Source: Candidatus Cloacimonadales bacterium
GTDB taxonomy: Bacteria > Cloacimonadota > Cloacimonadia > Cloacimonadales > JAFGVF01
Direction of reading: 5' to 3'
DNA: 64,000 nt
NCBI GenBank assembly: GCA_963677495.2
Contig: CAXXOU010000002.1
Coordinates: forward strand, 96,001-160,000
Shown here in pieces: positions 5,518-56,081 of this stretch (the stretch's first letter is position 1; each line of letters starts with the position of its first letter). The notes under the pieces are model-generated. The model saw nothing but the letters and a program-made list of their open reading frames with translations, was not told the origin of the DNA and did no database searches. Position numbers and translations under genes: made by a program.

Positions 5518-5653
5518 CTCTCTGCAGTAACTAGTCATTGTAAACAGGTTTTAACTTGGCGATAGGTTGGTAAATTCTTGGCAATTAGGCCAAGAATAGG
5601 CCAAGGGTTTACCAAGGGTTTGCCAAGTGTCTACCAAGAATTACTGCAGAGAG
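5518..5653. repeat. 11-bp-phased palindromic element (TTGG -> CCAAG) with 13-bp terminal inverted repeat
   Basis: CTCTCTGCAGTAA 5518-5530 / TTACTGCAGAGAG 5641-5653; (C/G)TTGG at 5555,5566,5577; CCAAG at 5590,5601,5612,5623,5634. Confidence 0.85.
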
Positions 5654-5796
5654 ATGAAGGACAATAAGGGATTAGATCAATCTGTTTTGTAGAGAGTAGT
5701 ATCAATGTGTCTTTCTAACCGGAATTAGTAGATACATAATAGTATTAAATCTTGACAATATGAAATTATTAATGTTGAACATATTTAGGAGGTAAT

Positions 5797-8322
5797 ATGA
5801 AGCAGATTATTACTATTGTATTTATGTTGCTATGTCTAAGTTGTTTTGCTCAAACTCAAAGATTAGTTGGTTCCGGTACTGAGGATGACCCTTATCTAAT
5901 TAGTAGTGAATATGATTTATTCGTGTTTGGTTCGAACTCCGACACTGCCTTTGGTGATACCCTATATTATTTTCAAACATGCGATATATATTTTAGTAAT
6001 ATGGCTCATAGTGTTGTTTATGACGGGTTCTTCTCGTATGGCCAAACTTATGCCCCCTTTAACGGTGTTTTTGATGGAAATAACAAAAGAATAATCTATG
6101 ATGATAATTTACCACCGGTGACAGGAAGTTTCATGGGTTATACTGATGGAGCTGTTTTAAAAAACATTAATCTGGTTAATCTAAATCTCTCATTGAACTA
6201 TGAAGGTGGTGGGTTAGTTAACTCAGCCAATTATACAACATTTCAAAACTGTAGTGTGTCCGGTACAATTACAACTAATCAGTATTATGGAGGATTGGTA
6301 AATCATACAGATAATTGTACAATTGAACAATGCTTTGTTGATGCCTCGATTACTGCAGATGAGGGTACTAACCCTGATATTGGTGGATTAATCAGACATT
6401 GTTACAACTCTTCAGTATCAAACAGCTTTGTTAAAGGATCAATAGATACATATTCAAGTGGAGGTCTGGTTTATGATAATTGGCAATCTACTATCAGGAA
6501 CTGTTATGCAAATGTTGAGAATATTGACAATCAGGATATGGGAGGAATATTTTCAAGTACAACAAATTTTACAGGGGATTCATTACAGAACAATGTATGG
6601 AACTCAGACCTTAATACCTCTGATCAAAGTAATATAATATTTTTCCCACTCTCATCTGATGAGGTATTGGCCGCAACTACAGCTGAGATGCAACTTGAGA
6701 GTACTTATACCTCCAGAAGTTGGGATTTTATCGGTGAAACTGTGAATGGAACAGATGATATTTGGGGGATTCATCCTCAGGTAAATGATGGTTTACCATA
6801 TCTTACTGTCTTTAATCCTCATGTAACAAGCTTTGTCTCTGATAGCACGACTGTATATGTTGATTCACAAATTCAGTTTACTGACACAACAAATAGAAAT
6901 CCCTCAAGTTGGGAATGGGATTTTGATAATGATGGCAACATTGACAGTAATCAGCAAAACCCTACTTATTCGTATGAGTTACCCGGTACTTATACAGTAT
7001 CATTAATTACAGTGGCTGATAGCAGTACTATTACAACAACAAAACAAGATTATATTACTGTGAACCCATTAAATCAACCTGACATTGTTTGTGAAACTGA
7101 TAGCTTGATATTTGGTGCTGTACCTTCTCAACAATCCGTAACTTTACCCATCGTTATTCAGAACATTGGCTCTGTTACATTGAATATAACAGATTTCCCT
7201 TCTACTAATCCAGCATTTTCTGTTCAGTTGTTGCAACAGACTCTGCCTATTTCGTTAGCTCCAGGTAGCTCGCAGCAATTTGAGGTTGAGTTCTCTCCAG
7301 GTAGTGGAGGAGAGTTTGAAGGAGTTATAACTGTGTTGTCTGATGACCCGATACATCCTCAGATTCAAATAAACGTTCATGGAACAGGAAACAGTTTAAC
7401 AGCAGATTTCGAAGCCCATCCTCAGTCAGGAGATGTGCCTCTTAGTGTACAGTTTGTAAATAACTCATCTGGTAATATTACAAGCTATTTATGGGACTTT
7501 GGTGATGGCTTTACATCGACAGATGAGTATGCATTTCATGAATATACAACTCCGGGTACATATACAGTTACCCTTTCAGTTTCTGATGGTAGTTCACAAT
7601 CAGAGAAAATTGAGACTGATTATATAGTTGTAAATGATTATGCAAATATTAGTACAAATCTTACAACCATAGATTTTGGTACAATATATCTTTCTTCCGT
7701 TAGACCTGATTCTACTGTTATTATTACAAATACAGGTGTGTCAGCATTAGAAATTACTGATATAAGTGTCTCAGATGTAGAGGGTGTAAATGGTTTCAAC
7801 TATAACTATCCTAATATGTACACTACCATACTTTCCAATGCGAGTGAAGAGATGCAAGTATCTTTTACACCTCAAAATGTGGGAGAATATCAAGCTAGTC
7901 TGATCTTAACAAACAACTCGAATGCTTCCCCAACTTATACCATTCAACTCACAGGAATTTGTGAGTATAATCCTCCCTTGAATCCTGAAAATGTAACAAT
8001 CATTACTATAGGTAATGATGCTCAGATATCATGGGACCAAGTGACTGAAGATATATTTGGCAATAGTATTACCCCTAATGGGTATATTGTACTTTATAAT
8101 GAATCTCCTAATAGTGTTGAAGAAGATTTCTATTTCTTACAATATGTAAGTGATAGCACAGCCTATACTCATCAAAATGTTGGTTATTTTAGGGACAATA
8201 TGTACTATCAAGTAAAAACATATATTAGTTATGATCCAATTAGAATAGAGGGGCTTGAGCTTTTAAACACTATAGATTCTAAAGAGATTAGAAAAGGTGA
8301 TATTGAGAAGTACTTAAAATAA
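5797..8322 (+). CDS. Secreted protein: GLUG-like beta-helix, two PKD domains, two Ig-like (choice-of-anchor D-like) domains
   Basis: Signal peptide; GSGTEDDPYLI and GGLV repeats; PKD motifs WEWDFDNDG and YLWDFGDG; SD AGGAGG. Confidence 0.8.
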   Translation: MKQIITIVFMLLCLSCFAQTQRLVGSGTEDDPYLISSEYDLFVFGSNSDTAFGDTLYYFQTCDIYFSNMAHSVVYDGFFSYGQTYAPFNGVFDGNNKRIIYDDNLPPVTGSFMGYTDGAVLKNINLVNLNLSLNYEGGGLVNSANYTTFQNCSVSGTITTNQYYGGLVNHTDNCTIEQCFVDASITADEGTNPDIGGLIRHCYNSSVSNSFVKGSIDTYSSGGLVYDNWQSTIRNCYANVENIDNQDMGGIFSSTTNFTGDSLQNNVWNSDLNTSDQSNIIFFPLSSDEVLAATTAEMQLESTYTSRSWDFIGETVNGTDDIWGIHPQVNDGLPYLTVFNPHVTSFVSDSTTVYVDSQIQFTDTTNRNPSSWEWDFDNDGNIDSNQQNPTYSYELPGTYTVSLITVADSSTITTTKQDYITVNPLNQPDIVCETDSLIFGAVPSQQSVTLPIVIQNIGSVTLNITDFPSTNPAFSVQLLQQTLPISLAPGSSQQFEVEFSPGSGGEFEGVITVLSDDPIHPQIQINVHGTGNSLTADFEAHPQSGDVPLSVQFVNNSSGNITSYLWDFGDGFTSTDEYAFHEYTTPGTYTVTLSVSDGSSQSEKIETDYIVVNDYANISTNLTTIDFGTIYLSSVRPDSTVIITNTGVSALEITDISVSDVEGVNGFNYNYPNMYTTILSNASEEMQVSFTPQNVGEYQASLILTNNSNASPTYTIQLTGICEYNPPLNPENVTIITIGNDAQISWDQVTEDIFGNSITPNGYIVLYNESPNSVEEDFYFLQYVSDSTAYTHQNVGYFRDNMYYQVKTYISYDPIRIEGLELLNTIDSKEIRKGDIEKYLK

Positions 8323-8503
8323 ATTATTGTTACTAAAATCGCATCAATATGTGTTTACTGGAATGACTCCATGCGTTTGATAGTCAACTAATCTAAGTTA
8401 TTGGCTCAATACCGAATAGAGTGGAACTCCCATTGGTCGCTTCAAACTTTCGCTTGAAGCTTCGTCTAGACAGGTGGACTCGTCCATCAGATTAAGAACA
8501 TAC

Positions 8504-8682
8504 ACAGTGCCTTTTGCAACGACTTAACTATATTTATTGCCCTTTTTGCACTCTTTCAGTGCTCTAGCAAGCAACGCACTGTTTTCCCACTGTGCACGCA
8601 CTGTGAAGGCACTGCCAACCCACTGTTTCACTGGGTGCACAGTGCGTGCACAGTGGGAAAGCAGTGGGATGACTGCGGTTTT
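8504..8682. repeat. About 180-bp dispersed repeat containing 11-bp-phased CACTG -> CAGTG palindrome (copy 1)
   Basis: CACTG at 8577,8588,8599,8610,8621; CAGTG at 8640,8651,8662; near-identical copy at 53508-53686. Confidence 0.9.
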
Positions 8683-8797
8683 ATGAATGGATTTGTACTG
8701 GAGCGATCTGATCAACTCCAATCTTAAGGAGAAGCATTAAATTAAGAAACCACCTTTTTAAATAGATCAAGAATTTCTAAAATTGCCGTTCTGGTTA

Positions 8798-8908
8798 TAC
8801 CTTCGGAATGGTCCTTAGACCTTGCGAATGGTTCTCTTGAAAGTTTACGTAAAAATAGCAACTTCCACCATTTGCAAGGTCTCGCAAAACTCAACCATTC
8901 CAAAGGTA
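8798..8908 (-). repeat. Solo REPIN-like unit of the 119-bp array family
   Basis: ACCTT-N4-ATGGT at 8799, 8819; ACCAT-N4-AAGGT at 8867, 8894; linkers match the array unit in reverse orientation. Confidence 0.8.
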
Positions 8909-9033
8909 GAGAATCATAATTAGGTTGCCCGATACAACTCTGAAAATAGTTATTGCTTGACATGATAAGTAGCAATGTAGTTATACAAATAGTATTACTC
9001 TATGCAACTTGAACATAGAGTTAGGAGTTGAGT

Positions 9034-10299
9034 ATGAATGAGAAATTGATAATAAAGAATTTTCTTGCTATTGAGCATGCTGAGGTAGATATTAAACGGT
9101 TCAATGTTATAATTGGACCTCAGGCTAAGGGTAAGAGTGTAATAGCTAAGGTGTTGTATTTCTTTCGGACTGCTATGGAATTTTATCTGGTTAGTTTCGA
9201 TAAGTTTTATGATGAGCAAGCAATCATTGATGAACTTATAAACAAGTTTAGAGAGTGGTTCCCATATTATACATGGAAAGAAAAAAGATTCAACTTAAAT
9301 TATATAATAGGTAGCCACATGTTGTCACTATCAAATGAAATTGATTCACTAAATAATCATGTTTTAGTGATGAGTTTTCCAGATAAGTTCACCACTATAA
9401 GAGATACAATACTTGATGAAAAGAAGAGCGATTCATTACTTATGGAGACTAGCTTAAGTAGTGCATTAAAAAAATCATATTTGAGCGTCGAATTTGCCCG
9501 TGAATTAAGATTGCCTTCAATGGAAACAACTTACATACCAGCTTCAAGATCATTTCTCTCGTTTCTACAAAACAATATGTTCTCTTTTATTCGTGGTAAA
9601 AACAAAGTAGATCCTTTCCTAATAGAATTCGGTAGTATTTATGAGACAGCAAGAAGAGAGTATGAAAGTCTTGGTACGGTATTAGATTTGTTTTTAGAGC
9701 TAGATGTAGGAACGATAGATAAAATAAAGAAGATAATAGAAGAAATAGTTCAGGGTAGGTACGTATTCGAAGATAGAAAGGATTGGATAATTAGCTCCAA
9801 CAATATCCAAAAAACAGAATTATCATATAGCTCCTCAGGACAACAAGAGGCTATACCAATGCTTATTGTTTTAGCATATTTTATGTATATTAAGGATGGT
9901 CAGAATTACCACAATCTATGCCTTTTAGAAGAACCTGAAGCTCATCTATTCCCACAGTCTCAAAATCAAGTAATCTCTATGCTATCACTTTTATATGATG
10001 AACTTAAGACAAATTTCTTCATCACAACCCACAGTCCATATATACTCTCAGCCATCAATAACTTGATCCTTGCTGGTGATACTATAAATGCAGGCAAGAT
10101 GACACGTGAAGAGTTTGAAAAGATTAATGGTCCGAGTGCACCAATAAACCTTGATGATGTAGCAGCATACACTATTGTTGATGGTAAAACTGAGTCAATA
10201 GTTGATTATGATTACAGACTTATTGGGGGAGATATTCTTGATAGTGTATCTGATCATTTTTCCAACGTTATGAATGAGCTGTTGAAACGGGATATGTAG
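9034..10299 (+). CDS. ABC-type ATPase (AAA_15/AAA_21-like), putative defence/TA component
   Basis: Walker A GPQAKGKS, signature SSSGQQE, Walker B LLEEPEAHL, TTHSPY. Confidence 0.85.
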   Translation: MNEKLIIKNFLAIEHAEVDIKRFNVIIGPQAKGKSVIAKVLYFFRTAMEFYLVSFDKFYDEQAIIDELINKFREWFPYYTWKEKRFNLNYIIGSHMLSLSNEIDSLNNHVLVMSFPDKFTTIRDTILDEKKSDSLLMETSLSSALKKSYLSVEFARELRLPSMETTYIPASRSFLSFLQNNMFSFIRGKNKVDPFLIEFGSIYETARREYESLGTVLDLFLELDVGTIDKIKKIIEEIVQGRYVFEDRKDWIISSNNIQKTELSYSSSGQQEAIPMLIVLAYFMYIKDGQNYHNLCLLEEPEAHLFPQSQNQVISMLSLLYDELKTNFFITTHSPYILSAINNLILAGDTINAGKMTREEFEKINGPSAPINLDDVAAYTIVDGKTESIVDYDYRLIGGDILDSVSDHFSNVMNELLKRDM

Positions 10300-10300
10300 A

Positions 10301-10729
10301 ATGGATTGGGTAAAGTGTACAATTGCAAGGAAAGATCCAATAATCACTTTGAAAGAAAATGGTAAAGTCTTTAGGTTAATAAACGAAAACAGAATAGAAG
10401 TGAATGAAATAAAAGTAGATAATTGTTTGATTTGTGATAACAGACAGCGATGCGACTATATCTTGGATTATCCGATCGATGAACAGGGTTATGTATTGTT
10501 AATTGAACTCAAAGGGAATGACGTACCTCATGCAATTGAACAATTGAAAGCTACTTTGAGTCATACAAAATCAAAGTATAGTAAGTATTGTAAATATTGT
10601 TTTATAATCTCCTCAAAGTGGCCAAGAATGAGTACTACTAAACAAAAGATAAAAAAAGACTTCAAGAGACTTGGAGCTTTGTTTGATCAAAAAAACAATG
10701 TGTTTGAGTTCAAGGTTTCTGCATTCTAA
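10301..10729 (+). CDS. Small basic protein with PD-(D/E)xK-like nuclease motif
   Basis: RCDY...LLIELKG....AIEQL; starts 1 nt after the ATPase stop. Confidence 0.6.
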   Translation: MDWVKCTIARKDPIITLKENGKVFRLINENRIEVNEIKVDNCLICDNRQRCDYILDYPIDEQGYVLLIELKGNDVPHAIEQLKATLSHTKSKYSKYCKYCFIISSKWPRMSTTKQKIKKDFKRLGALFDQKNNVFEFKVSAF

Positions 10730-11074
10730 TGCAATCCATTTAGGATTGTAAGAATCCATATACTTTACCATGGGTCGGTTGACACCATCGCTAGTATTAT
10801 GTGTTCCTGTCGGAACAAAAGGTACTTGGTCTGCACCATGTTTCCGAAGAAGTCCGTTTTCGCTCCGCAAGCTCCGCATCTGACAAACTCCTTTAGAAAC
10901 AGGATAATTTACTGAAATATATATAAAGATAAGACACTTCTAACACCTTTTCCATAATCAAATATGATGAAAAAGCCAAAAATATCTTGATTTATATTAA
11001 ATAACTCCAAATATGACATACAGTATTTATAATAGGAAAATATACACATAAACAAGCAAAAGAAGGGAGTAGTG

Positions 11075-20220: not shown

Positions 20221-20362
20221 CATTGCTCTATCTTAATTCACGGGAGTATGACGGGATTTGCTAAGGATTTTCAAGGGAATTTCTCGGGCAAAGCCCCGAG
20301 AGATTCCCGAGAGAGTCCCGGGTGATTCCCGAGAAAGTCCCGTGAATTAAGATAGTGCAATG
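20221..20362. repeat. 11-bp-phased palindromic element (CGGG -> CCCG) with 25-bp terminal inverted repeat
   Basis: 20221-20245 vs 20338-20362 one mismatch; cores at 20241,20252,(20263,20274),20285 and 20295,20306,20317,20328,20339. Confidence 0.9.
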
Positions 20363-28348: not shown

Positions 28349-28595
28349 CTTATAAATCCTAGTAAGTATTACTTAATTCTTTTACTGATTTGGATGTTTA
28401 CTGTCAATGGAAAACATGAAAGTAAGAAGTCCATTCCTGTCATTTCGTCCATGATGGTCCACTTCTGTTAACTCAAGTCCACTAATTTCCATAATGAAAC
28501 TATTGCTAACCAAAACCTTTTCAAGTCTCTCAAAACCACCTCCCTTTAATAACCCTTCTACGCCCGGTCTATCCATAGGCTTCTCACAGGTTAGT

Positions 28596-28660
28596 CTCCC
28601 GTTGCTCTCCCGTTGCTCTCCCGTTGCTCGCAACGAGTGGGAAACGAGTGAGAAACATCC
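28596..28660. repeat. 11-bp tandem/phased palindromic element (CTCCCGTTGCT x3 -> AACGAG)
   Basis: Three exact 11-mers 28596-28628, then AACGAG at 28632 and 28643. Confidence 0.8.
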
Positions 28661-28668
28661 AAAAAAGT

Positions 28669-28677
28669 TGTGGATAA
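28669..28677 (-). promoter_or_regulatory. DnaA-box consensus (TTATCCACA)
   Basis: TGTGGATAA on + strand, in the region upstream of the mrfA-like gene. Confidence 0.35.
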
Positions 28678-28816
28678 ACCGGGCGCAGAAGGGAAAGTAT
28701 TGACATGTTAAGAAATAGATATCTGGGCTCATAGCGACCGAAAGGGAGTTGGAGCAATTGCGAAATGTGGTAACTGCAAAAGTAGCATCTCTGTAACCAA
28801 GCACATGTAAAAATAA

Positions 28817-36636: not shown

Positions 36637-36719
36637 GTGTATTAACTTAGAGTTTTTTTAGAATGGTCGCATCGTAACTCCGTCGTTTCCTTTAATATGA
36701 TAGGTGATGCTAAGATGTT

Positions 36720-36784
36720 CCACTCGTGACCCACTCGTGACACTCTCGTGGAAACGCTCAAGTTATCCCCAAAATGTGCATAAC
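36720..36784. repeat. 11-bp-phased CTCGTG triplet followed by inverted DnaA-box-like pair
   Basis: CTCGTG at 36723,36734,36745; TTATCCCCA..TGTGCATAA. Confidence 0.55.
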
Positions 36785-37094
36785 TTATTTATCAGAGTAG
36801 CACATTTCATATTCAAGGGTAAGCCAAGGAGGTGACAAACTCATTTGTTGATAAAAATCAAAAAAAGAAGATAAATTGTGCTTGGTATGATGGTAAAACG
36901 GAATTTGTTGCTTAGAAATTTAGATCAGTATAAATAATTATTGACACCATTTATAAACTCGTCTCTTTTATTTGATATGAAAATTTAAAAAAAGTTATCG
37001 AAACTTGCCATTTATCCATACAGAGTAGAAGATGAATAACGTTTTGATAAAGGTGAAAAGTTTCATTTAAGAGTAAACTATGTGAGGTATCCAT

Positions 37095-40000
37095 ATGAGT
37101 ATAAATTGGAATAATATTAGAACACTAGAAAATTCACAAAATGAAGGTTTCGAGGAATTAGTCTGTCAATTAGCAAGAAAAGAAAACATTCCCAATTTAA
37201 AAAAGTTTATCAGAAAAGGAAAGCCAGATGCCGGTGTAGAGTGTTTTTGGATATTAGATAATGATGACGAAATCGCATGGCAAGCAAAATATTTTACTAG
37301 TAGTTTAGAAGATACACAATGGTCTCAAATAGATAATTCGATTCGAACTGTACTTGATAAACATCCAAAACTAAAAAAATACTATATTGCTATTCCCAAT
37401 GATCCACCAGATGCTAGAATTGAAGGGCAAACTTCAATGTTAGATAAATGGGATTCAAGAGTCACAAAGTGGAAGGGATGGGCTTTAGAAAAAGGACTTA
37501 CAGTAGAATTTATTCCTTGGTGGAGTTCTGATTTAATAGAAAGATTACAAAAGCCTGAGAATGATGGATTGACATACTTCTGGTTTAATAAAGAAGAATT
37601 TACCGATGAATGGTGCAAAGAACAGTCTGAACTATCTATTTCAGACTTAGGCAAAAGATATACACCCAAATTAAATATTAAATTAGAGATTTCAGAAATT
37701 TTTAATGGAATTTCAAGAGACAAAGACTTCCTTAATCAAGTCACAACTCTATTTGATGATTTTCTAATAATGGGTAAAAAAACTATACCAAGAATAGATG
37801 ATTTAGATTCTTGTTCTTCGGCTCTCAAAAAAGAGTTAAAGGCAATTCATGATCTGTTTAGTTCTACAGACTTTCAAGGAATAGAAACTTTACCCGTTAA
37901 TGAGTTTTTGACATCTATCGAAAACACAGATCAAATAGTAACTAAAATCAGAGATTCCTATTTAGAACAAGAATCTAAATTACAAACGAATCCTGATGAT
38001 TATCGCTATTATAAGAAGTTTGGCTCCGAGATAAGTCACATTAGAGATTTTGAGAATTCAATTTACTCACTATCAAGATTTTTAGAAGATACAACCATGA
38101 AACTTGCAAATCATCCTTTTTTATTATTGGAAGGAGAAGCGGGTATAGGAAAATCACATCTGCTTGCTGATATAATTAGTACTAGAACTAAAGATAATCT
38201 TGTTAGTCTTTTATTTTTAGGTCAACATTTTGTTACTGATGAAGATCCTTGGACACAAATATTCAAGAAGAATGATATTAATTGCTCTGTAGATGAGTTT
38301 TTAGGAGCACTAAACTCGAAGGCTCAGATTAGAGGACGAAGAATTATTCTATTTATTGATGCTGTTAATGAGGGCCGAGGTAAGTATTTTTGGAACAATA
38401 ACATTAAGAGTTTTCTTACCAAGGTTAAAAAATATAAATGGTTAGGCGTTGTAATGTCAATACGTACATCGTATTCAAACTTAATTTTTCCAAAGGATGA
38501 AATAAAAGAAGATGAAATCATTAGATATACTCATTATGGGTTTAGAAATCAAGAGTATGAAGCAACAAAACTTTTTTTCAATAATTACGGAATAGAACTA
38601 CCTAGCATCCCCTTGTTGCATCCAGAATTTCAAAACCCCTTATTTTTGTTGTTATTCTGTGAGGGTTTAAATAAAGCTGGTTATACAAAGATTCCTGATG
38701 GCTTACAGGGTATTACTGCTATAATAGATTTTTTTATAACAAGTGTTAATAATATCCTTTCAAAACCAACTCGATTAGATTATCCGAGAAGTATAAACAT
38801 TGTTAGAAAAGCAATAGAATCATTAATCGCATACAAAATTGATAATCATTTAAGGTATGTCCCTTTCGAGCAAGCATTTGTTTTATTTAACAAAATGTCT
38901 CATGAATTTAGTACAAAAAAAAGGGGCTTGATTGATGAGCTAATATCTGAAGGTATCCTTTCTAAAAACTTATTTTGGAATCCAGAAAAACGATATGAAG
39001 AGGGTGTTTATTTAGTCTACGAACGATTCGAAGACCATTTAACAGCTTCATATATCATTGATACAAATCCTGAAATAGAAGAAGCTTTTAAAGAAGGTGG
39101 TACTCTTTTCAATTTAGTTAAGGATGAGATATCTTGCAATATCAATAAAGGAGTGATTGAAGCTCTTACTATTCAAATTCCTGAAAAAAAAGGCAAAGAG
39201 TTTTATGAATATGTCCCTCATATCAAGGATAGTTATCCAATCATTGAATGTTTTGTGCAAAGTTTGTTATGGCGTAAAAATGAAACAACATCAAAGAAGC
39301 TCGTTGGGTATGTAAATTCTACAGTATTAAAATATCAAGGTACTTTTGATTTGTTTTGGGACACCATTTTATCAGTAACATCTACTCCAGATCATTACTT
39401 TAATGCATATTCATTGCATAATAATCTAATGGGATTTAGCTTGCCTGAAAGAGATGCATGGTGGACAATTTACCTAAAACAACAGTTTTATGATGGATCA
39501 CCAGTCAAAAGACTTATTGATTGGAGTTGGAATACAAATGATAAAAGTCATATCTCAGATGAATCAGTTAAGTTGACTTCAATAACTTTATCCTGGTTTC
39601 ATACAAGTACGAACAGAAAATTACGAGATTCTGCAACAAAAGCTTTAATATGTCTTTTGGAAAATAGAATTCATATTTTAATTGAATTGCTTAAGTTATT
39701 TGAAAAAGTTAATGACCCGTATGTATATGAGAGGTTGTTTGCTGTTGCATATGGCTGTTCCGTTAGAACAGAACAAACAGATAAACTAAGTGAACTGAGT
39801 AACTATATCTTTGAGACCATATTCAATGATGAAGTAGAAGTATACCCACATATTCTTTTAAGGGATTATGCAAGGGGAGTAATTGAATTTACTTATTATC
39901 GTGGTTATGATTTAGAGTTTGATATTTCAATGTCAAGACCACCATATAAAAGCTCTTTTATTGGTAGTTACCCAAAAAATGAAGAAATTAATGAGTTGTA

Positions 40001-41327
40001 TGAGCCTAAAGATGAAGAAGGACATTACGGAAAAGAAAAATGGGGTGTCACAGCAATACTATGGTCAATGGCAACTGAACATGGGGCAAGAATGTATGGG
40101 GATTTTGGAAGATATGTTTTTCAAAGTGCATTTAGAAATTGGGATATTGATCCAAATGATTTGAGTAATTTAGCTATTGAGTGGATTTTTAAAAAATATG
40201 GCTATGATTCTGCATTGTTTAATGATTTTGACTTAAAGATTGGTACTGGACGAGGACGGAATACTTTTCCTCATGAACGAATTGGTAAAAAATATCAATG
40301 GATAGCTTTATATGAGATGCTAGCAAGAGTTTCTGATAATTGTAAGAAATATGCAGATTGGAGTTTTCTACATTCAGAAGAGGATGCATTTCAAGGTCCA
40401 TGGGAACCCTATGTTAGAGATATTGATCCTACAATGATAATAAACAAAACAGGAAGTTATGATGAAGAAGCACTTCATGACTTCTGGTGGTCTCAAGAAA
40501 AATATATGAACTGGGAATTTGAGAATGAGGAATGGATAAAATTGATTGAAGACCTTCCTAATTCTAAAAAAATCATAAATATTGTTAACAAATCTGGTGA
40601 AGAATGGCTTGTACTTGAAGGTTATCCTGAGTGGGCAGAATCAAAAAAAGTTGGAGATGAGAAATGGGATAAACCACATAAAAGGATATGGTATCAACTG
40701 AGAAGTTATCTAATTACAGATGATGACTATGTAAAAATTAAAGATTGGGCTTCAAATCAGGACTTTATGGGGAGATGGATGCCTGAAAGCTCCAGTAGAT
40801 ATCAAGTTTTTAGCAGAGAATATTATTGGTCGCCAGCTTACAATTATTTTTATAACAAAGAATATTATGGAGGAATGGAGCTTAAAGAAATACATGAAAA
40901 GATAACTGAAGATTCTATAGGTAATGTAATCTTAACTACTAACAACTTTTTATGGGAAGAAGAATTTGATCAGTCCAAAGAGGATTCAATTCACTTCCTG
41001 AAACCATCAAAGTATATATTTGAGCATATGAAGTTGGTTTATTCTAAAAAAGAGGGTGAGTTTACAGACGATACAGGAGAAGTAATATGTTTTGCACCTT
41101 CTGTGTATTTTGATTCTCAATCTTATCTGATAATAAAGAAGTACCCATTACTTAAGTTCTTAAAAGAATCCAAACTAAGATTACTTTGGACAGTTTTAGG
41201 AGAGAAATCTATCATTGGAGGTCATTCAAACGGAGATGTATTTTATGGTAGGCTTGAAATAAGTGGAGTATACTATTTAAATGAAAACAATGAAGTCGAA
41301 GGAAAAGTTTCTACCAAAGTAACATAA
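37095..41327 (+). CDS. avs2: AVAST type 2-like STAND NTPase with N-terminal PD-(D/E)xK-type nuclease (antiphage)
   Basis: N-terminus WNNIR..GFEELVCQLA..PDAGVE..AWQAKY; Walker A GEAGIGKS; Walker B LFIDAVNE; long helical C-terminus; 1410 aa. Confidence 0.75.
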   Translation: MSINWNNIRTLENSQNEGFEELVCQLARKENIPNLKKFIRKGKPDAGVECFWILDNDDEIAWQAKYFTSSLEDTQWSQIDNSIRTVLDKHPKLKKYYIAIPNDPPDARIEGQTSMLDKWDSRVTKWKGWALEKGLTVEFIPWWSSDLIERLQKPENDGLTYFWFNKEEFTDEWCKEQSELSISDLGKRYTPKLNIKLEISEIFNGISRDKDFLNQVTTLFDDFLIMGKKTIPRIDDLDSCSSALKKELKAIHDLFSSTDFQGIETLPVNEFLTSIENTDQIVTKIRDSYLEQESKLQTNPDDYRYYKKFGSEISHIRDFENSIYSLSRFLEDTTMKLANHPFLLLEGEAGIGKSHLLADIISTRTKDNLVSLLFLGQHFVTDEDPWTQIFKKNDINCSVDEFLGALNSKAQIRGRRIILFIDAVNEGRGKYFWNNNIKSFLTKVKKYKWLGVVMSIRTSYSNLIFPKDEIKEDEIIRYTHYGFRNQEYEATKLFFNNYGIELPSIPLLHPEFQNPLFLLLFCEGLNKAGYTKIPDGLQGITAIIDFFITSVNNILSKPTRLDYPRSINIVRKAIESLIAYKIDNHLRYVPFEQAFVLFNKMSHEFSTKKRGLIDELISEGILSKNLFWNPEKRYEEGVYLVYERFEDHLTASYIIDTNPEIEEAFKEGGTLFNLVKDEISCNINKGVIEALTIQIPEKKGKEFYEYVPHIKDSYPIIECFVQSLLWRKNETTSKKLVGYVNSTVLKYQGTFDLFWDTILSVTSTPDHYFNAYSLHNNLMGFSLPERDAWWTIYLKQQFYDGSPVKRLIDWSWNTNDKSHISDESVKLTSITLSWFHTSTNRKLRDSATKALICLLENRIHILIELLKLFEKVNDPYVYERLFAVAYGCSVRTEQTDKLSELSNYIFETIFNDEVEVYPHILLRDYARGVIEFTYYRGYDLEFDISMSRPPYKSSFIGSYPKNEEINELYEPKDEEGHYGKEKWGVTAILWSMATEHGARMYGDFGRYVFQSAFRNWDIDPNDLSNLAIEWIFKKYGYDSALFNDFDLKIGTGRGRNTFPHERIGKKYQWIALYEMLARVSDNCKKYADWSFLHSEEDAFQGPWEPYVRDIDPTMIINKTGSYDEEALHDFWWSQEKYMNWEFENEEWIKLIEDLPNSKKIINIVNKSGEEWLVLEGYPEWAESKKVGDEKWDKPHKRIWYQLRSYLITDDDYVKIKDWASNQDFMGRWMPESSSRYQVFSREYYWSPAYNYFYNKEYYGGMELKEIHEKITEDSIGNVILTTNNFLWEEEFDQSKEDSIHFLKPSKYIFEHMKLVYSKKEGEFTDDTGEVICFAPSVYFDSQSYLIIKKYPLLKFLKESKLRLLWTVLGEKSIIGGHSNGDVFYGRLEISGVYYLNENNEVEGKVSTKVT

Positions 41328-41579: not shown

Positions 41580-41672
41580 ATCTGATATGCAGAAAATAAA
41601 TTTTGGGCTTAGGTGTCAATAAAAAAGGTTTGGGTGAGAGGATAGGGTAAGATCTTAAACAGTTTCGACAGT

Positions 41673-41815
41673 CATTGTACTGCTACAATTGTTATCACTT
41701 TCGAAGGAGACTCCTATTGAAACCCTATTCAAATGTTGTTTATGGACAACAGGATTTGGACTAGTTTCTGAGGTGGAAGAGTCTGTTGAAACATGATAAT
41801 TGTAGCAGAACAGTG
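41673..41815. repeat. Degenerate palindromic element with imperfect 18-bp terminal inverted repeat
   Basis: CATTGTACTGCTACAATT / AATTGTAGCAGAACAGTG; same length and end style as 20221-20362; inner phasing decayed. Confidence 0.55.
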
Positions 41816-41917
41816 AGATTGAAGTGAGATATACCTATTTCGAAGAAATTAGTATAATAAATATTTTTTACTTTACAACTCAAATGTAAGTTTAGATAGT
41901 AGTATATGGAGGTTTGT

Positions 41918-45706: not shown

Positions 45707-45821
45707 GCTAAACTTAACTTAATCAAGCAGATTGCAGTGTCCTGAATAAGTTTACCATAGTTTTAGTTACTCAGTTTACTTCAATTGAATGAAATAATTC
45801 TATCTTTTCTAAATTGATTTA

Positions 45822-46610
45822 CTAAGAAGCATATACACTTCCAGGAGTGTTGTAGTCAAGTGAAGAATGATATCTTTTATTATTATAGATATAAACTGCT
45901 TCTTCCGTTGCTTGCAAAGCGACCTTTTTGTTTGGGAATTTCAATTTCATTCCCAGATCATGTTTCAATGTTCTGTTTACTCTTTCAGCGACTGCATTAT
46001 CATAGCAGTGATTCTTTCCTGTCATACTAACTCTTGCATGGCTTCTTTTAAGCAATCCGATGTATTCTTTACTACAGTACTGGACACCATGATCAGAGTG
46101 AAGTATTATACCTCGCGGGATTTTTGTTCCTCTTTTTGCTTTATTAAATGCCTTCACTGCTCCTTTTGTTTCCAGAGTATCAGATAAGTAGTGACCAACT
46201 ATCTTTCTTGAATAGTAGTCTGTTACTAAAAACAGATACATAAACCCCCTTCCAACTGAGATATATGTAATGTCTGTTACCCAAACTTGGTCTTTTTTTG
46301 TGATGTTCGTTTCCGGTAAAAGATTGGGGTATATCTTCAATTTATGCTTCCAGTTTGTTGTAAGTACATATCGCTTGGGAGGTCTTTGCAATAAGTTATT
46401 CATACGTAACAACTCTATTAGTTTATCTCTACTTATCTTTAGGTCAGGATCATTATGTTTTATAAGCATTTTCATTATCATTCGATAGCCTGTTGTCTCC
46501 TGTTCTCGCCGGAGCTCTTCCACGAGTCGCACTATCTCACGGTCTCTCGCAGCATCTCGTTCGAGTATTTTTACATGCTTATTATAGCCTTGTCTTGTAT
46601 AACCGTACAC
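45822..46610 (-). CDS. IS3 transposase OrfB (DDE/rve)
   Basis: WVTDITY, HSDHGVQY, DNAVAERVNRTLK. Confidence 0.9.
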   Translation of the reverse strand: MYGYTRQGYNKHVKILERDAARDREIVRLVEELRREQETTGYRMIMKMLIKHNDPDLKISRDKLIELLRMNNLLQRPPKRYVLTTNWKHKLKIYPNLLPETNITKKDQVWVTDITYISVGRGFMYLFLVTDYYSRKIVGHYLSDTLETKGAVKAFNKAKRGTKIPRGIILHSDHGVQYCSKEYIGLLKRSHARVSMTGKNHCYDNAVAERVNRTLKHDLGMKLKFPNKKVALQATEEAVYIYNNKRYHSSLDYNTPGSVYAS

Positions 46611-46624
46611 CTTACAAATCCTCT

Positions 46625-47059
46625 CTAATCCTCTGTATCGGAGTCCGCATTCAATAGCTCTTTCTTGAGTTTTTCCTGCACTATCGAACCAAGCTTTTTT
46701 TTTAGATCCATACCTAGCTTATTACCGGATACTTCTATCAATGTCTCTAATGCTAACTCTTTAAGATAGCTATCGTCCAATGCACGCTGAAGCCGTCTAT
46801 TCTCCTTGCGTAAGCGGATTAATTCGGTCTTTTCATCTTTAGTCATATAGTGTACCACCTTATCAATCTTTTGATCCATTCCATATTTTTTGATCCAACC
46901 TCGAATGGTTGTCGTACTTGGTATTTTATAAAGCTGAGTTGCTTCACTAATAGTTAAATATCCACTCTCGATTTCGTCTACTACTTTCATCTTAAATACT
47001 ACACTATAGTTTCTCAAAACTCTCTTTTCTTCTTTCTCTTTCATCTCTTTTCCTTTCAT
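46625..47059 (-). CDS. IS3 transposase OrfA (HTH), -1 frameshift into OrfB
   Basis: YS..FKMKVV..WIKKYG, coiled coil; A-AAA-AAG slippery site at about 46694-46700. Confidence 0.85.
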   Translation of the reverse strand: MKGKEMKEKEEKRVLRNYSVVFKMKVVDEIESGYLTISEATQLYKIPSTTTIRGWIKKYGMDQKIDKVVHYMTKDEKTELIRLRKENRRLQRALDDSYLKELALETLIEVSGNKLGMDLKKKLGSIVQEKLKKELLNADSDTED

Positions 47060-47112
47060 AGTTTAGGGTAACTATTTCAGGACAATACAACCCTTACCTT
47101 ACTGCATTAATT

Positions 47113-47193
47113 CCTAGCAATCTCTTGGCAAACACTTGGCAAACACTTGGCTAGGCAAGGAAAGGGCAAGGGAGGAACAAGGTGAAGGCAAGA
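47113..47193. repeat. 11-bp-phased palindromic element (CTTGG -> CAAG)
   Basis: CCTAG/CTTGG at 47113,47124,47135,47146; CAAG at 47156,47167,47178,47189. Confidence 0.8.
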
Positions 47194-47301
47194 GATGATA
47201 TGCCAAAGTCGAGTGCTTAACTTAACATGATTATCACTTGACTTGCAGATAATGACTGTTAATCTGCCTTGAAATTCTATTTACTATTAATTGGAGGATA
47301 T

Positions 47302-50691: not shown

Positions 50692-50942
50692 TGCTACTCA
50701 CTACGGTGCAAGTTCAAATTGTCATATTGATTGAGTGATGTACACAGTGCCAATTGCAATAACTTACCGCATTTCAGGGAGTTTGTCAGCCTGATAAGGC
50801 AACGGACTTCCTAAAATGCACTCCAAGTCGCAATTCATGAACTTCTATTCTCGCCCCAAGAACCTACGCTTATCAGCTACGGCTTCTCAGGCACTTCGGT
50901 GCGGTGCTACTCACTACGGTGCAAGTTCATTTTGTCATACTG
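50692..50942. repeat. Direct repeat of a 25-mer in REP-rich intergenic DNA
   Basis: TGCTACTCACTACGGTGCAAGTTCA at 50692 and 50905, each followed by TTGTCATA(T/C)TGA. Confidence 0.8.
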
Positions 50943-51129
50943 AACGTAGTGAGTTTTGCGAGCGTAGCTGAAGGAACTCTCCGATAGCTTTAGTTTCACA
51001 ACTAAGAAGAGCATGTTCCTAAAGATAAGTCAATACTCCAAACGTTAATCCACTAAAGTCATCTGAGCGACCCTTATGTCAATGGCATTTTAAATTGGTA
51101 CAGTTTGGCATTTAAAAATGGTACAGTCT

Positions 51130-51861
51130 TCATTTTTGAAAATTCCTTAGTCTAAAGCTGTCTCCGAGCATTGTAATTGGTTGTGAGTGATGGAGTAATC
51201 TATCAAGAATAGCAGTTGCTATCACATTGTCGTTAAAAATAGCTCCCCATTCATTAAACAACCTATTCGATGTTATGATTACTGATCTAAATTCGTATAA
51301 GAGATGGATGAGTCTAAAGAACAGATTAGCTGCCTTTGTCTGGAGAGGAAGATACCCCATCTCATCTATAACTATCAGATCATTCTTGGCTATATTGCTT
51401 AGATATTTATCTATGTTGTTATCTGCTTCAGCTAGTACAAGTTCTTCGATAAGGTTGTTCAGATTATAAAACACCACCTTATATCCTGCCTTTATTGCTT
51501 CATAACTGAGTGCTGTTGCAACATGAGTCTTACCTACTCCCGGAGGTCCCATTAAAATTATATTCCTCCTCTGCTCCAGCCAGACAAAGTTCTTCCACTC
51601 CTTTACTTGTCTTTTGGTTATTACTTGTTGATAAGCATAGTCGAACTCATCAAAGGTCTTTATTACCGGGATGTGAGCCTGTTTAAGTCTTCTGTTGATA
51701 TTGGTTTGATTCCTTCCTGAGTTCTCTTTTTCAAATAGATAATGTACGAACTCCAGATAAGTCATATTCTGTTTCTCTGCTTCTAAAACTGCACTTTCAA
51801 GAGTATTCAAAATATGAGTACAACGAGCCCTTTTGATGTATGTTTTAGTTATCTCTATCAT
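51130..51861 (-). CDS. istB: IS21 helper ATPase IstB
   Basis: GPPGVGKTH, IDEMGY, ILDRLLHH. Confidence 0.95.
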   Translation of the reverse strand: MIEITKTYIKRARCTHILNTLESAVLEAEKQNMTYLEFVHYLFEKENSGRNQTNINRRLKQAHIPVIKTFDEFDYAYQQVITKRQVKEWKNFVWLEQRRNIILMGPPGVGKTHVATALSYEAIKAGYKVVFYNLNNLIEELVLAEADNNIDKYLSNIAKNDLIVIDEMGYLPLQTKAANLFFRLIHLLYEFRSVIITSNRLFNEWGAIFNDNVIATAILDRLLHHSQPITMLGDSFRLRNFQK

Positions 51862-51862
51862 C

Positions 51863-53395
51863 TTATAACACCTTCATGTAGTCATCTAATGAGCGCTCTA
51901 TTAATGAACTCTCTGAGTCTTGTTGTGGTTCTGATTCTGATAATTCATTTAGCTTCATTTGTCTTACTTTTGCATTCAGAAGCTTCTCTATGGCTGTTGC
52001 CTTTACATGCGAAAGAGTCATTACCTCAGGAAGCACTGACTCCCATACATCTGTTTCATAGTTACGCTTAAACTTGCTTAAGGCTCTCAACTGATCCCTT
52101 GCTATTTTAGGGTTATCATTAACAAGCCTCTGGATTAGTTCTTCTCCTTGGATATATTCACTCATCTCATCCTTTACTCGCTCAATAAGCTCTTGTAGCA
52201 CTACCGTAAAATCCCGATAATGATTAGTGTTTTTGATGATTTTGCCTTTTTCTGTGCATAGCTCATGTTGGCAGATTTCCTTTCTTGTATAAATATCCAT
52301 CACCACTAAAGTGCTCTTTTCTTTTTGCACATATACCTGTTTTCGCTGATACTCTAATGGAACAGAGTACTTATTACCCTCATACGAGATTAAGCCTGTT
52401 TTATCTGCATTACGAACTTCTAAAGTGAAGATAAACTCTGGAATATCTTTTAGCTTTAACCTCTCTTCTTGCCATACTTCTGATGGTACTTTACGGGTTG
52501 TGCCATGGGTTCTGCCGTTAAAGTGTAAAAGCCACTCAAGTCCGCGTGAACGCAGGTCTGCCAGGTCTTTGAACTCTTTGCCATACATAAAGCCATGCTT
52601 TACTTCTGAGACATTACGCTCTACTTTACCCTTGCTTTGTGGATCATAGCCTTCGCATACATGAGGATGAAAGCCCGTTTTTGCTGCAAACTGATGGAAC
52701 TGATTATTTAAGATTACTTCCCGATAGCGTTCCTGTATTACTACAAGCTTTGTCTGGTCGTAAACACACTCTGAAGGGATACCTTCAAAATAGATAAAAG
52801 CTTCACGATGAGCTTCAATAAACCTTGATGTGTTATATGGTGTTGTGCTCCAATGGACATAGCTTTGACGCGAGTGGGAAAGCACAAAAACTATAAAATA
52901 AACTCTTTGACGTTTATTACCCAAAACTACTTTCATCTCACCTGGATCAACTTGAACCTGAACACCGGGAGCCGTCTCGATTACTGCATAATTACGGTAT
53001 TTATCGACAGGATAAGTCTGCTTTAGCTTACGAACAAAATCTCGGAAAGCTCTGTCTTTTGCTTTTATCTCAGGGAACTTTTTCTTAACTTCTAAATATA
53101 GTACACTAGCTCTTAATCGTGGATATTTGCTAAGCCTTTCGCGGACATATTGCTCACATATGGCAAAACTGCTTTCACGAATGCTATTGTTTATTAGTTC
53201 CATGAACTCATCAAGTGTCATATTTATGTATTTACCTACTGTTGTCTTTGATAGAGACAACTCCTCTGCGATCTTACGCTGACTATGCCCTTGCTTATGC
53301 ATAGTTTTTATTGAATGATACACTTCTACTCCAATCATACCTACTCCAAACTGTCTTGAAGTAGTCATTTTTAAAGGTTGGCAGTTTTGTACCAC
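51863..53395 (-). CDS. istA: IS21 transposase IstA
   Basis: HTH, ETAPGVQVQVD, YDQ, KGKVER; the real start may be the downstream MIGVEV. Confidence 0.95.
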   Translation of the reverse strand: MVQNCQPLKMTTSRQFGVGMIGVEVYHSIKTMHKQGHSQRKIAEELSLSKTTVGKYINMTLDEFMELINNSIRESSFAICEQYVRERLSKYPRLRASVLYLEVKKKFPEIKAKDRAFRDFVRKLKQTYPVDKYRNYAVIETAPGVQVQVDPGEMKVVLGNKRQRVYFIVFVLSHSRQSYVHWSTTPYNTSRFIEAHREAFIYFEGIPSECVYDQTKLVVIQERYREVILNNQFHQFAAKTGFHPHVCEGYDPQSKGKVERNVSEVKHGFMYGKEFKDLADLRSRGLEWLLHFNGRTHGTTRKVPSEVWQEERLKLKDIPEFIFTLEVRNADKTGLISYEGNKYSVPLEYQRKQVYVQKEKSTLVVMDIYTRKEICQHELCTEKGKIIKNTNHYRDFTVVLQELIERVKDEMSEYIQGEELIQRLVNDNPKIARDQLRALSKFKRNYETDVWESVLPEVMTLSHVKATAIEKLLNAKVRQMKLNELSESEPQQDSESSLIERSLDDYMKVL

Positions 53396-53507
53396 TTTTC
53401 ACTGCCATCGTGTACCATTTCTCACTGCCATTGACAACCCTTACGACTTCATTCACTCCATTCCATGTCGTTCATTCCGCTCAGGGTGACATCACTAGAA
53501 AAATATT

Positions 53508-53686
53508 CACAGTGCCATTACCAATAACTTAGCTATACTTATTGTCCTTTTTACTCCCTTTTACTGCTCTTTTCACCAACGCGCTGTACACGCACTGTGA
53601 TCCCACTGTGAAGGCACTGCCAACCCACTGTTTCACTGGGTTCACAGTGCGTGCACAGTGGGAAAGCAGTGGGATGATTGCGTTTT
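53508..53686. repeat. About 180-bp dispersed repeat with 11-bp-phased CACTG/CAGTG palindrome (copy 2)
   Basis: Near-identical to 8504-8682, same orientation. Confidence 0.9.
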
Positions 53687-53906
53687 GATAGACAGTTTAA
53701 TCCAATTGTGCAGATGTTGTAAAATTGAGAAATTGTGACTATAACATTGCGATACCAAAGCCAGAGAAGTAATCCCATAATAGAGATAACATTCAGCAAA
53801 ATGACGCTTAATTGTTTGATACTATGGAAATTATTAGATACATCTAACATTAATATTGGTTATTAGACAATTCCAACTATAATATGGAAAATATTTGGAG
53901 GAAATA

Positions 53907-55886
53907 ATGCTGAATAAGAAAATATATATACTTACAATTACAGTACTTGCGCTCCTATTTCTTATAGGTTGTGACGATAGTACTACCGGTCCTGACTATG
54001 ATTATATGGATATCACTGCAGCCAATGCAGTAGATCTGATAAATAGTAATCCTGAATTAATAATAATTGATGTTTCAAACATGTGGAATCTTGGACACCT
54101 ACCAGGTGCTCTGAATTATCCTTTAGGTGATGGTAGCTTTGAAGCTGAAATCCCTAACTGGGATCCTATGGCTATGTATTTAATTTACTGCCACTCTGAT
54201 GCTGCTGCAATAGCTGCTGCTGAGATGCTTGAAGATGAAGATTTTAAACATGTCTATCGCCTGGTTGGTAACTTTGGAGGTTGGGTAGATTCCGGTTATC
54301 CAATCGAAGTAGCTGACTATATGGATATCACACCTGCTAACGCTCAAACTTTAATAAACGATAATCCCGGGATCTTCATAATTGATGTATCCAATATGTG
54401 GGAATATGGTCATATCCCAGGAGCTTTGGATGTCCCTTTAGGAGATGATAGTTTTGAGAATGCTATTCCTACATGGGATTCAATGGCTATGTATCTTGTA
54501 TATTGTCATACAGATGCAGCGTCAATGTCTGCTGCTCAAATGCTTACAGATGCAGATTTCCCACACGTTTATCGTTTAGAGGGAAATTACGGTGCTTGGG
54601 TTGGTGCAGGTTATCCCATCGAAGTAGAAGCATATAGAGATATTGCTCCAGCTGATGCGCAGACTTTGATAAACGATAATCCCGGAATCTTCATAATTGA
54701 TGTATCCAATATGTGGGAATATGGTCATATCCCCGGAGCTTTAGATGTTCCATTAGGAGATGACAGCTTTGAGAATGCTATTCCTACATGGGATTCAATG
54801 GCTATGTACCTTGTATATTGTCATACAGATGCAGCGTCAATGTCAGCAGCCCAAATGCTTGTTGATGCTAACTTCCCCCATGTATATCGTCTTGAAGGAA
54901 ATTACGGTGCTTGGGTTGGTGCAGGTTATCCAATCGAAGTAGAAGCATATAGAGATATTGCTCCTGCTGATGCACAGACCTTGATTAATGATAACCCGGA
55001 TATATTCATTATTGATGTTTCAAACATGTGGGAATATGGTCATATCCCCGGAGCTTTAGATGTTCCATTAGGAGATGATAGTTTTGAGAATGCTATTCCT
55101 ACATGGGATTCAATGGCTATGTACCTTGTATATTGTCATACAGATGCAGCGTCAATGTCAGCAGCCCAAATGCTTGTTGATGCTAACTTCCCCCATGTAT
55201 ATCGTCTTGAAGGAAATTACGGTGCTTGGGTTGGTGCAGGTTATCCAATCGAAGTAGAAGCATATAGAGATATTGCTCCTGCTGATGCACAGACCTTGAT
55301 TAATGATAACCCGGATATATTCATTATTGATGTTTCAAACATGTGGGAATATGGTCATATCCCCGGAGCTTTAGATGTTCCATTAGGAGATGATAGTTTT
55401 GAGAATGCTATTCCTACATGGGATTCAATGGCTATGTACCTTGTATATTGTCATACAGATGCAGCGTCAATGTCAGCAGCCCAAATGCTTGTTGATGCTA
55501 ACTTCCCTCATGTTTATCGTCTTGAAGGGAACTACGGTGCTTGGGTTGATACAGGCTATCCAATCGAAGTAAAAGCATATAGGGACATTACAGCAGAAGA
55601 GCTTTATCAGATGTCTATGGATAACTCAGAATTAGTAATCATAGATGTTTCTCCTATGTATGATCAAGGTCATATTCCAGGAGCAATAAACTATTATGTG
55701 GGTGACGGTTCACTTGATAATGCAATTCCTATGTTAGATTCAGCCGGTTATTATGCAGTATACTGCCATACAGATTCAGCTTCGATGCTGGGTGCACAAA
55801 AACTTATTGATGCAGGATTCATACATGTTTACCGTCTTGAAGGAAACTATGATGCCTGGGTTAATGCAGGTTATCCAGTCGAGTAA
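53907..55886 (+). CDS. Lipoprotein with six tandem rhodanese-like domains
   Basis: Lipobox LIGC; six IIDVS..GH(I/L)PGA..YCH(S/T)D..VYRL.GN..W...GYP units; 315-bp DNA repeats. Confidence 0.9.
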   Translation: MLNKKIYILTITVLALLFLIGCDDSTTGPDYDYMDITAANAVDLINSNPELIIIDVSNMWNLGHLPGALNYPLGDGSFEAEIPNWDPMAMYLIYCHSDAAAIAAAEMLEDEDFKHVYRLVGNFGGWVDSGYPIEVADYMDITPANAQTLINDNPGIFIIDVSNMWEYGHIPGALDVPLGDDSFENAIPTWDSMAMYLVYCHTDAASMSAAQMLTDADFPHVYRLEGNYGAWVGAGYPIEVEAYRDIAPADAQTLINDNPGIFIIDVSNMWEYGHIPGALDVPLGDDSFENAIPTWDSMAMYLVYCHTDAASMSAAQMLVDANFPHVYRLEGNYGAWVGAGYPIEVEAYRDIAPADAQTLINDNPDIFIIDVSNMWEYGHIPGALDVPLGDDSFENAIPTWDSMAMYLVYCHTDAASMSAAQMLVDANFPHVYRLEGNYGAWVGAGYPIEVEAYRDIAPADAQTLINDNPDIFIIDVSNMWEYGHIPGALDVPLGDDSFENAIPTWDSMAMYLVYCHTDAASMSAAQMLVDANFPHVYRLEGNYGAWVDTGYPIEVKAYRDITAEELYQMSMDNSELVIIDVSPMYDQGHIPGAINYYVGDGSLDNAIPMLDSAGYYAVYCHTDSASMLGAQKLIDAGFIHVYRLEGNYDAWVNAGYPVE

Positions 55887-55903
55887 ACAAAAGTAATAAG
55901 TTA

Positions 55904-55938
55904 AAAAACTCTGGTTTACGCCAGAGTTTTTTTTTTTT
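55904..55938 (+). terminator. Terminator
   Basis: AAAAAACTCTGG-tttacg-CCAGAG plus long T-run. Confidence 0.85.
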
Positions 55939-55998
55939 AGTTGAGTTTATAGATCTAGGATATATCTAGACTTAAGATTGGATCTAAACAGTTACATT

Positions 55999-56081
55999 AC
56001 CACGCAACATCCACGGGTAAACCACGCCTAAACCACGCAAGCCGTGGTTAACCCGTGGTTTGGGCGTGGTCAACCCGTGGT
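55999..56081. repeat. 11-bp-phased palindromic element (CCACG x4 -> CGTGG x4)
   Basis: CCACG at 56000,56011,56022,56033; CGTGG at 56043,56054,56065,56076. Confidence 0.9.

Follow-up and report, generated by a model that had tools for sequence, protein, structure and literature searches.

REPIN-RAYT systems are the textbook case of repeats that are kept by a cognate single-copy gene, and the enzyme encoded by that gene is an HUH enzyme. As described in parts of two papers, REP/RAYT genomes hold several families of extragenic hairpins, each near its own, mostly single-copy gene; repeat abundance tracks the cognate gene, orphans persist after gene loss and copies cluster and nest (PMC3116915, PMC3686654). 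MITEs (miniature inverted-repeat transposable elements) of bacteria are, in the accessible part of PMC3184786, short, intergenic, multicopy and lineage-restricted, often with terminal inverted repeats and long hairpins. Small ParR proteins bind only the cognate arrays upstream of their own genes, ParR of R1 needing two 11-bp repeats (PMC9426499, in part). Here we analyze a stretch of 64,000 nucleotides (the window) from the genome of a Candidatus Cloacimonadales bacterium, which holds nine elements built from 4-6 bp words phased at 11 bp (arrays). In our interpretation, a two-part module consists of an inverted 11-bp-phased array and, downstream of it, a gene for a protein of about 150 amino acids (aa), and the window elements are copies of the array that lack the gene; each paralog likely binds and spreads its own array family. 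We assign this interpretation a probability of roughly 0.55.

Phased arrays occur throughout the source genome and form distinct families. The genome (G000) comprises 3.41 Mb with 37% GC in 4 contigs, and the window corresponds to G000:C2:96001-160000. The atlas neighbors of one of its proteins belong mostly to Cloacimonadota, and a protein with 51% identity is listed under Ca. Zophobacter franzmannii. A scan of spacings with shuffle control, proposed in an initial annotation of the window, returned a single peak at lag 11, where 161 clusters of four words in a row are found, compared to between 0 and 21 at every other spacing in the range 5-30 (21 at lag 7, 12 at lag 14 and at most 6 elsewhere). 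Across 1117 intergenic segments, 274 three-word and 159 four-word clusters were counted while 20 dinucleotide shuffles gave means of 3.65 and 0, respectively. Chance or base composition as the origin of the arrays is ruled out by the shuffles and the lag profile. Sorting into families, for which clustering by core had been proposed, placed 261 of 283 clusters in 14 multicopy families of 2-67 copies (67, 39, 37, 34, 24, 21, 19, 4, 3, 3, 3, 3, 2 and 2) and left 22 singletons; AT-richer families slip past the cluster filter and were picked up in a later search. The elements had been described as sharing architecture and not sequence, which holds between families only: those at 8577 and 53580 belong to the same family and eight of the nine window loci are multicopy, with 12-67 genomic matches each, the element at 28596 matching only itself. 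Family alignments contain a well conserved core of 90-150 bp with conservation fading outward. Decayed coding repeats are ruled out, with two of the 261 members lying in open reading frames (ORFs) of at least 120 aa, and recurrent short ORFs across arrays are translations of the repeat itself. All elements had been placed between genes and upstream of a gene start. The first part stands for 258/261 members (one further member has no neighbor) but 40 of these 258 occupy convergent gaps, with 123 in tandem and 95 in divergent gaps according to our own ORF calls. The convergent share (15.5%) is close to the background of 93/638 (14.6%), and divergent gaps are somewhat enriched (95/258 versus 172/638). 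Arrays are present in 237 of 638 long intergenic gaps and therefore also shape the non-coding DNA of this genome.

Arrays are paired with genes of a protein family and the pairing recurs across genomes. The family was found by clustering ORFs near arrays. It has 22 full copies in the source genome, none of them in the window, and is matched by 366 clusters at 50% identity; a search across 41 genomes returned matches in 28, with 0-24 gene copies per genome. In the module, the gene follows 100-1250 bp after the array, and the paralogs of the source genome carry different arrays upstream, most array families being found just before their own version of the gene. Among 65 genes of relatives (71 from chosen loci, 6 being left out for short flanks), at least three phased words are found upstream of 17 and downstream of 1, and at least four words upstream of 12 and downstream of none; other lags give at most 4. 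In one relative with 12 family genes (G013), 7 of 10 genes have a four-word array (a 4-mer recurring four times in a row at 11-bp spacing), a 200-kb sample contains five such arrays, and gene-less copies bear the same cores as the gene-linked arrays. Samples of 200 kb each from G024 and G031, where the gene is absent, and from G004, which has one gene, contain no four-word arrays. In a tree of 58 family proteins from the source genome and relatives, gene clades follow array families across genomes, with support of 100/100 for the F0 genes of G000 and the congeneric genome G001, 100/100 for F1, 100/99 for F9 and 100/99 for the CCGTTG family; F3 and F9 genes form one common clade (99/95). Array and gene have also been duplicated as a unit. 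G000:C2:34113 and C3:24776 have an 822-bp segment in common at 96.8% identity, which begins with the outer arm of the array, ends at the stop codon and lies in unrelated flanks; contig depth at this segment is about twice the single-copy value. In an F9 pair, only array and gene are alike within 6 kb on each side.

The number of gene-less copies tracks the presence of the cognate gene. For empty sites, family sizes and copy densities, 1.6 of the 3.1 Mb of G001 were compared. Among 11 families whose cognate gene is present in only one of the two genomes, 10 have more gene-less copies per Mb in that genome (sign test, p = 0.012; one tie dropped). F2, F3 and F4 number 39, 35 and 23 copies in G000 and are absent from the G001 part. 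The CCGTTG family, which includes window element 28596, has 2 copies in G000, where the 58-protein tree contains no gene of its clade, whereas the G001 part, to which its gene belongs, contains 16. For eight of the nine elements, a matching array is found upstream of a family gene outside the window. A candidate binding protein is supported because genes pair with arrays. The positions of arrays are lineage-specific as well. In an empty-site comparison foreseen by the initial annotation, none of 12 syntenic junctions that hold an array in G000 (in 10 cases a family member, in 2 a singleton) carries one in G001, and filled/empty alignments confirm insertions, the array region being extra DNA. 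Array mobility is supported by these unfilled sites and by family sizes, which are very different in G000 and G001. At one site, the two genomes share an older element whose terminal arms are of the same kind. Same-face protein sites and mobile hairpins had originally been offered as alternatives; mobility and, through the pairing, a candidate binding protein both find support, and the two seem to be halves of one system.

Overall, the population pattern is the one known from REPIN-RAYT systems, but the protein family is unrelated to theirs and unannotated, and the repeats follow another grammar. As in REPIN-RAYT systems, multicopy extragenic palindromes are found, each family with its own cognate gene that abundance tracks, with F5, F11 and F12 as exceptions. 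In contrast, the partner protein is not a Y1/HUH transposase with a catalytic tyrosine and two histidines: none of 144 members matches PF01797 (Y1_Tnp) and no histidine occurs among columns conserved at 60% or more. Arrays lie upstream only, being found downstream of 0/22 genes in G000 and 1/65 in relatives, instead of on both sides. They consist of phased 4-6 bp words in a 90-150 bp dyad; a GTAG/GTGG tetranucleotide 5' of a short palindrome was not noticed as common to the family alignments, although no scan was aimed at it. Array and gene can also duplicate together. The arrays are like MITEs in being short, intergenic, multicopy and lineage-restricted, and terminal arms of 13-25 bp were found in four of the nine window elements. 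No target duplication or sharp ends were found, no arms shared with the insertion sequence (IS) ends viewed were seen, and each family has its own non-transposase gene. BrickBuilt of Porphyromonas gingivalis also possesses internal repeats, but its 23-nt tandem units are unspaced, according to part of PMC4596501. With ParR-parC, the module would share a small protein and a cognate array upstream of its own gene, assuming that the protein binds it, while differing in its hundreds of chromosomal copies; no parM partner was noticed, although no search was aimed at parM. No description of these repeats and their gene pairing was found in the literature searched, mostly without subscription papers and supplements, and a search by term of a paper on Ca. 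Zophobacter found no passage on these repeats (PMC8542988).

A confident model of the family protein (pLDDT 95) comprises a β-hairpin at residues 14-34, three long helices that span residues 42-103 and a small portion at the C-terminus. The most conserved residues are Tyr72 (99%), Gly14 (98%), Arg33 (93%), Lys2 (92%) and Asp68 (86%). Residues 1-34 are the most family-specific part, with 85% identity within and 35-43% between array families, and most array-linked proteins have a basic N-terminus. The family is under purifying selection, the F0 pair differing at 51 synonymous and 13 non-synonymous codons. Searches of Pfam, NCBIfam, PHROGs and PDB sequences returned no match of weight. Two of 144 members have HMG-box matches at E 0.006, which we take as no more than a lead, and the same applies to one atlas cluster with 11% DUF6266 members that scored 0.81. 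The N-terminal SGK motif presumably resembles that of DUF6266 (PF19781). This domain does not exceed the cut-off in G000, G013, G021 or any of the 144 members, and a literature search found no paper on it. The best, weak fold matches include several ribbon-helix-helix proteins (Z 3-4 over residues 48-107), and a likewise weak comparison with TraM-N (VIA Z at most 4.0, rmsd 2.4, 49 residues) has a helix in the model where a strand is expected. These results do not establish a new fold. A viral or plasmid origin has no support, with no relatives in IMG/VR, phages and plasmids at low search sensitivity. Two longer relatives, L222:1396-2424 (G040) and P0149, seem to hold two copies of the domain, the second copy in P0149 being without the N-terminal hairpin, and two partial gene remnants are located at G000:C4:469560-469766 and C4:1040941-1041042. 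With a strict pattern, a shared TATA..TAGAG motif, perhaps a family promoter, was found in 11 of 58 upstream regions; it is placed after the array and 50-390 bp upstream of the gene (e.g. G000:C4:23771 and C3:297242).

The family protein probably assembles cooperatively on double-stranded DNA, starting from both arms and proceeding towards the dyad, such that each helical turn takes up one unit and all units lie on the same face. The fixed 11-bp period under a changing word would fit a fixed protein-protein geometry combined with a variable reading head, and the N-terminal 34 residues would carry the word specificity. At slightly better than even odds, the protein-array complex would be needed for array copying to new intergenic sites, and we lean to the same degree towards the joint proposal of duplex binding, copying of the array and a gene that is left behind in most events. 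Cutting of the array by the family protein itself through the near-invariant Tyr72, Arg33 and Lys2 is conceivable but doubtful; alternatively, the protein may present the array to another enzyme. More speculatively, the modules could constitute a new class of bacterial mobile DNA, a view to which we give low odds, in which a 150-aa protein of undescribed fold reads a 4-6 bp word per turn, is retargeted via its N-terminal hairpin, and cuts and rejoins DNA via the invariant tyrosine. One genome would then run a dozen mutually orthogonal pairs of protein and array, together with hundreds of copies that depend on them. Should the protein also move DNA, it would amount to a transposase of very small size and new chemistry; with binding as its sole activity, it would instead offer a compact scaffold for reading DNA that is re-targeted in nature. 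With about 15 natural pairs of protein and word, the recognition code is accessible to direct testing.

A number of results weigh against the module. In G000 alone, a family-assigned array lies at most 1 kb upstream of 8/22 family genes and 66/192 isolated genes; only the absence of downstream arrays (0/22 versus 33/192) and the clade matching stand out within this genome while proximity itself is not enriched. The copy-density test compares two genomes and has thin margins for F6 and GTAAG. No gene in G000 corresponds to F5 (21-29 copies), F11, F12 or the family of element 41673, and 9 copies of F6 occur in the G001 part although its gene is missing there. Two gene clades (13 and 3 rows) are mostly without arrays, as are 8/9 genes in G014 and 9/10 in G027, and the family therefore has members with another role. 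Gene and array trees could agree through linked inheritance alone, and the F0 pair and one F1 pair may each represent the same ancestral locus. The fold matches no known domain that binds or cleaves DNA: searches of PDB and BFVD, which barely covered the N-terminal 40 residues, found nothing at E ≤ 0.001, and the best VIA Z is 4.1. No target duplication was seen at nine filled/empty pairs, which are diverged and hold other inserted repeats, and no sharp array ends were found in family alignments or empty sites. Excision or circle joints at arrays or the array-gene unit were not detected in four runs of one sample, in contigs only, from which rare forms are dropped.

Alternatively, Y1 or IS transposases of the genome could move the arrays, which would then be ordinary hairpins of the MITE or REPIN kind, with the small gene as a passenger that stays linked to one copy in repeat-rich hot spots. 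Long hairpins in seven of nine window elements that fold far better than shuffles (z -4.4 to -9.4), terminal arms of 13-25 bp in four elements (the remaining ends being short or blurred), isolated genes that often have an upstream array and array families without a gene would all suit this explanation, which we nevertheless consider unlikely. The genome contains 14 Y1_Tnp matches, but within 1.4 kb an array is found upstream of 3, downstream of 2 and on both sides of none, so that the service by HUH enzymes suggested in the initial annotation is not supported. Neither of the two IS200-like Y1 genes of the window (1516-1959 and 58527-59045) has an array within 1.4 kb. Target duplications, as noted, were not seen. 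Transposases also leave unexplained why each gene clade keeps to one array family, and only on its upstream side, in several genomes, why copy number tracks gene presence and why the 11-bp period is constant under a changing word. When array ends were viewed beside those of the resident IS3-like and IS21 elements, the F1 arm resembled the IS3-like end over 6 letters, without a terminal repeat in common. The IS3-like element of the window and its five other copies in G000 all adjoin an F1-type array arm on the same side (6/6), with a 3-bp duplication at 4/6 copies, and it looks as if this element targets F1-type arrays. IS21 (window 51077-53436) has 17 copies in G000, at least two of them inserted within arrays (G000:C4:1304911 in F0 and C3:196550 in F3) and most others in other repeats.

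It is fairly improbable that the paralogs are domesticated regulators or nucleoid organizers and the arrays operator or address sites that are selected near their targets and copied by gene conversion. An inverted pair of 9-mers, which we take to be DnaA-box-like, belongs to F3, F4, F9 and other families (window 36760-36786 and 28665-28680), and of the 154 exact TTATCCACA words counted genome-wide, 84 are at most 120 bp away from an array. Strict phasing with inverted symmetry suits protein binding, the enrichment in divergent gaps is compatible with regulation, and an array upstream of the gene of its own binder recalls ParR-parC (PMC9426499, in part). However, no array is kept at the 12 syntenic sites in G001, convergent gaps hold 40/258 copies, whole families are missing from the congeneric sample and gene copies vary from 0 to 24 among 41 relatives. 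A conserved regulatory role for the neighboring genes is contradicted by the absent positional conservation.

It is very improbable that the elements act as structured RNAs to which the protein binds and whose spread passes through an RNA stage. One turn of an A-form helix corresponds to 11 bp, the long hairpins are stable, and covariation of the arms within copies is seen for F1 (permutation p = 0.003) and, weakly, for F3 and F6. In F0, F2, F4 and F5, however, no arm covariation is found, and F3 and F4 are mostly one-sided. The better-folding strand is sense relative to the cognate gene in F0 and F2 but antisense in F1, F3 and F6 (copies within one family not being independent), which argues against a single RNA or single-strand polarity. 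At gathering score, Rfam matched only tRNA in the window and no array, and the RNA hairpin role raised initially is not supported.

Integron-like recombination sites for cassette exchange can be dismissed almost entirely: array gaps coincide with synteny breaks relative to G001 at 21/31 and five divergent family-gene pairs surround cargo, but gaps with other repeats break almost as often (8/15, versus 8/59 for repeat-free gaps), so that arrays are not read as specific recombination sites, and array neighbors are not more often accessory (orthologue fraction 0.33 versus 0.32-0.37), in a test that had been proposed initially. The five divergent pairs (G000:C1:774894-782349, C3:291415-297694, C4:777579-783024, C4:1465698-1474728 and C4:1498355-1504079) each include one member of the array-less acidic clade and enclose 4.4-8.1 kb, with PADLOC matching methyltransferase or Lamassu genes in three of the five cargos (5/10 partial ORFs matched).

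The nine window elements vary in completeness (Table 1). Cores recurring at exactly 11 bp were confirmed at eight loci, the decayed element at 41673 keeping two phased words, and the element at 36720 is one-sided as initially described. Terminal arms had been assigned to three elements; those at 5518, 20221 and 41673 are genuine, with spans of 136-145 bp, but a fourth pair had been missed at 28596. The element at 36720 has no long hairpin compared to shuffles, and that at 47113 likewise does not fold far better than shuffles.

Table 1. Array elements of the window. Match: best-matching array upstream of a family gene, with identity and aligned length; fold z: DNA folding relative to shuffles; xN: number of phased words.
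Element	Position	Strand	Type	Phased words	Terminal arms	Match	Fold z	Copies and remarks
5518	5518..5653	.	F1, CCAAG core, gene-less	CCAAG x5 at 5590-5634; inverted copies at 5555 and 5577	13/13 matching, span 136 bp	G000:C4:946602, 77% over 136 bp	-6.7	36 genomic matches
8577	8545..8685, ends approximate	.	F0, CACTG core, gene-less	CACTG x5 at 8577-8621, then x3 inverted		G000:C4:1447755, 87% over 141 bp	-9.2	66 matches
20221	20221..20362	.	F6, CCCG core, gene-less	CCCG x5 at 20295-20339	25 bp, 24/25 over 142 bp	G000:C4:23771, 86% over 94 bp	-9.4	22 matches
28596	28553..28693	.	CCGTTG core, gene-less	CGTT x3, then x2 inverted, 28600-28643	23 bp, 21/23 over 141 bp	G001 gene in L081, 84% over 83 bp		lone in G000 (itself only); expanded in G001 (14 matches in 1.6 Mb)
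36720	36715..36790, ends approximate	.	F4, CTCGTG core, one-sided	CTCGTG x3, 36723-36745		duplicated genes G000:C2:34113 and C3:24776, 82% over 68 bp		DnaA-box-like inverted pair after array
41673	41672..41816	.	decayed element	only two phased words remain	19 bp, 17/19 over 145 bp	none upstream of the 58 family genes examined		12 matches in G000, 0 in G001 part; adjoins tRNA-Lys
47113	47093..47200, ends approximate	.	F1-related, CAAG core	CAAG inverted x3, then x4 direct, 47124-47189		G000:C4:946602, 85% over 48 bp		directly beside IS3-like end (45733-47089)
53580	53555..53692, ends approximate	.	F0 (second copy), CACTG core, gene-less	CACTG x4, then x3 inverted, 53593-53667		G000:C4:1447755, 88% over 138 bp		same family as 8577
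55999	55996..56083	.	F2, CCACG core, gene-less	CCACG x4, then x4 inverted, 56000-56076		G000:C4:453917, 83% over 71 bp		40 matches in G000, 0 in G001 part

Other repeat classes pile up near arrays, both in the window (8800-8835) and genome-wide, and include 21-bp-period palindromes, heptamer runs that correspond to the lag 7 and 14 peaks, and long tandem mosaics. An Avs2 anti-phage gene over the NCBIfam cut-off (window 37095-41327) is located between the array at 36720 and the tRNA-Lys gene with element 41673.

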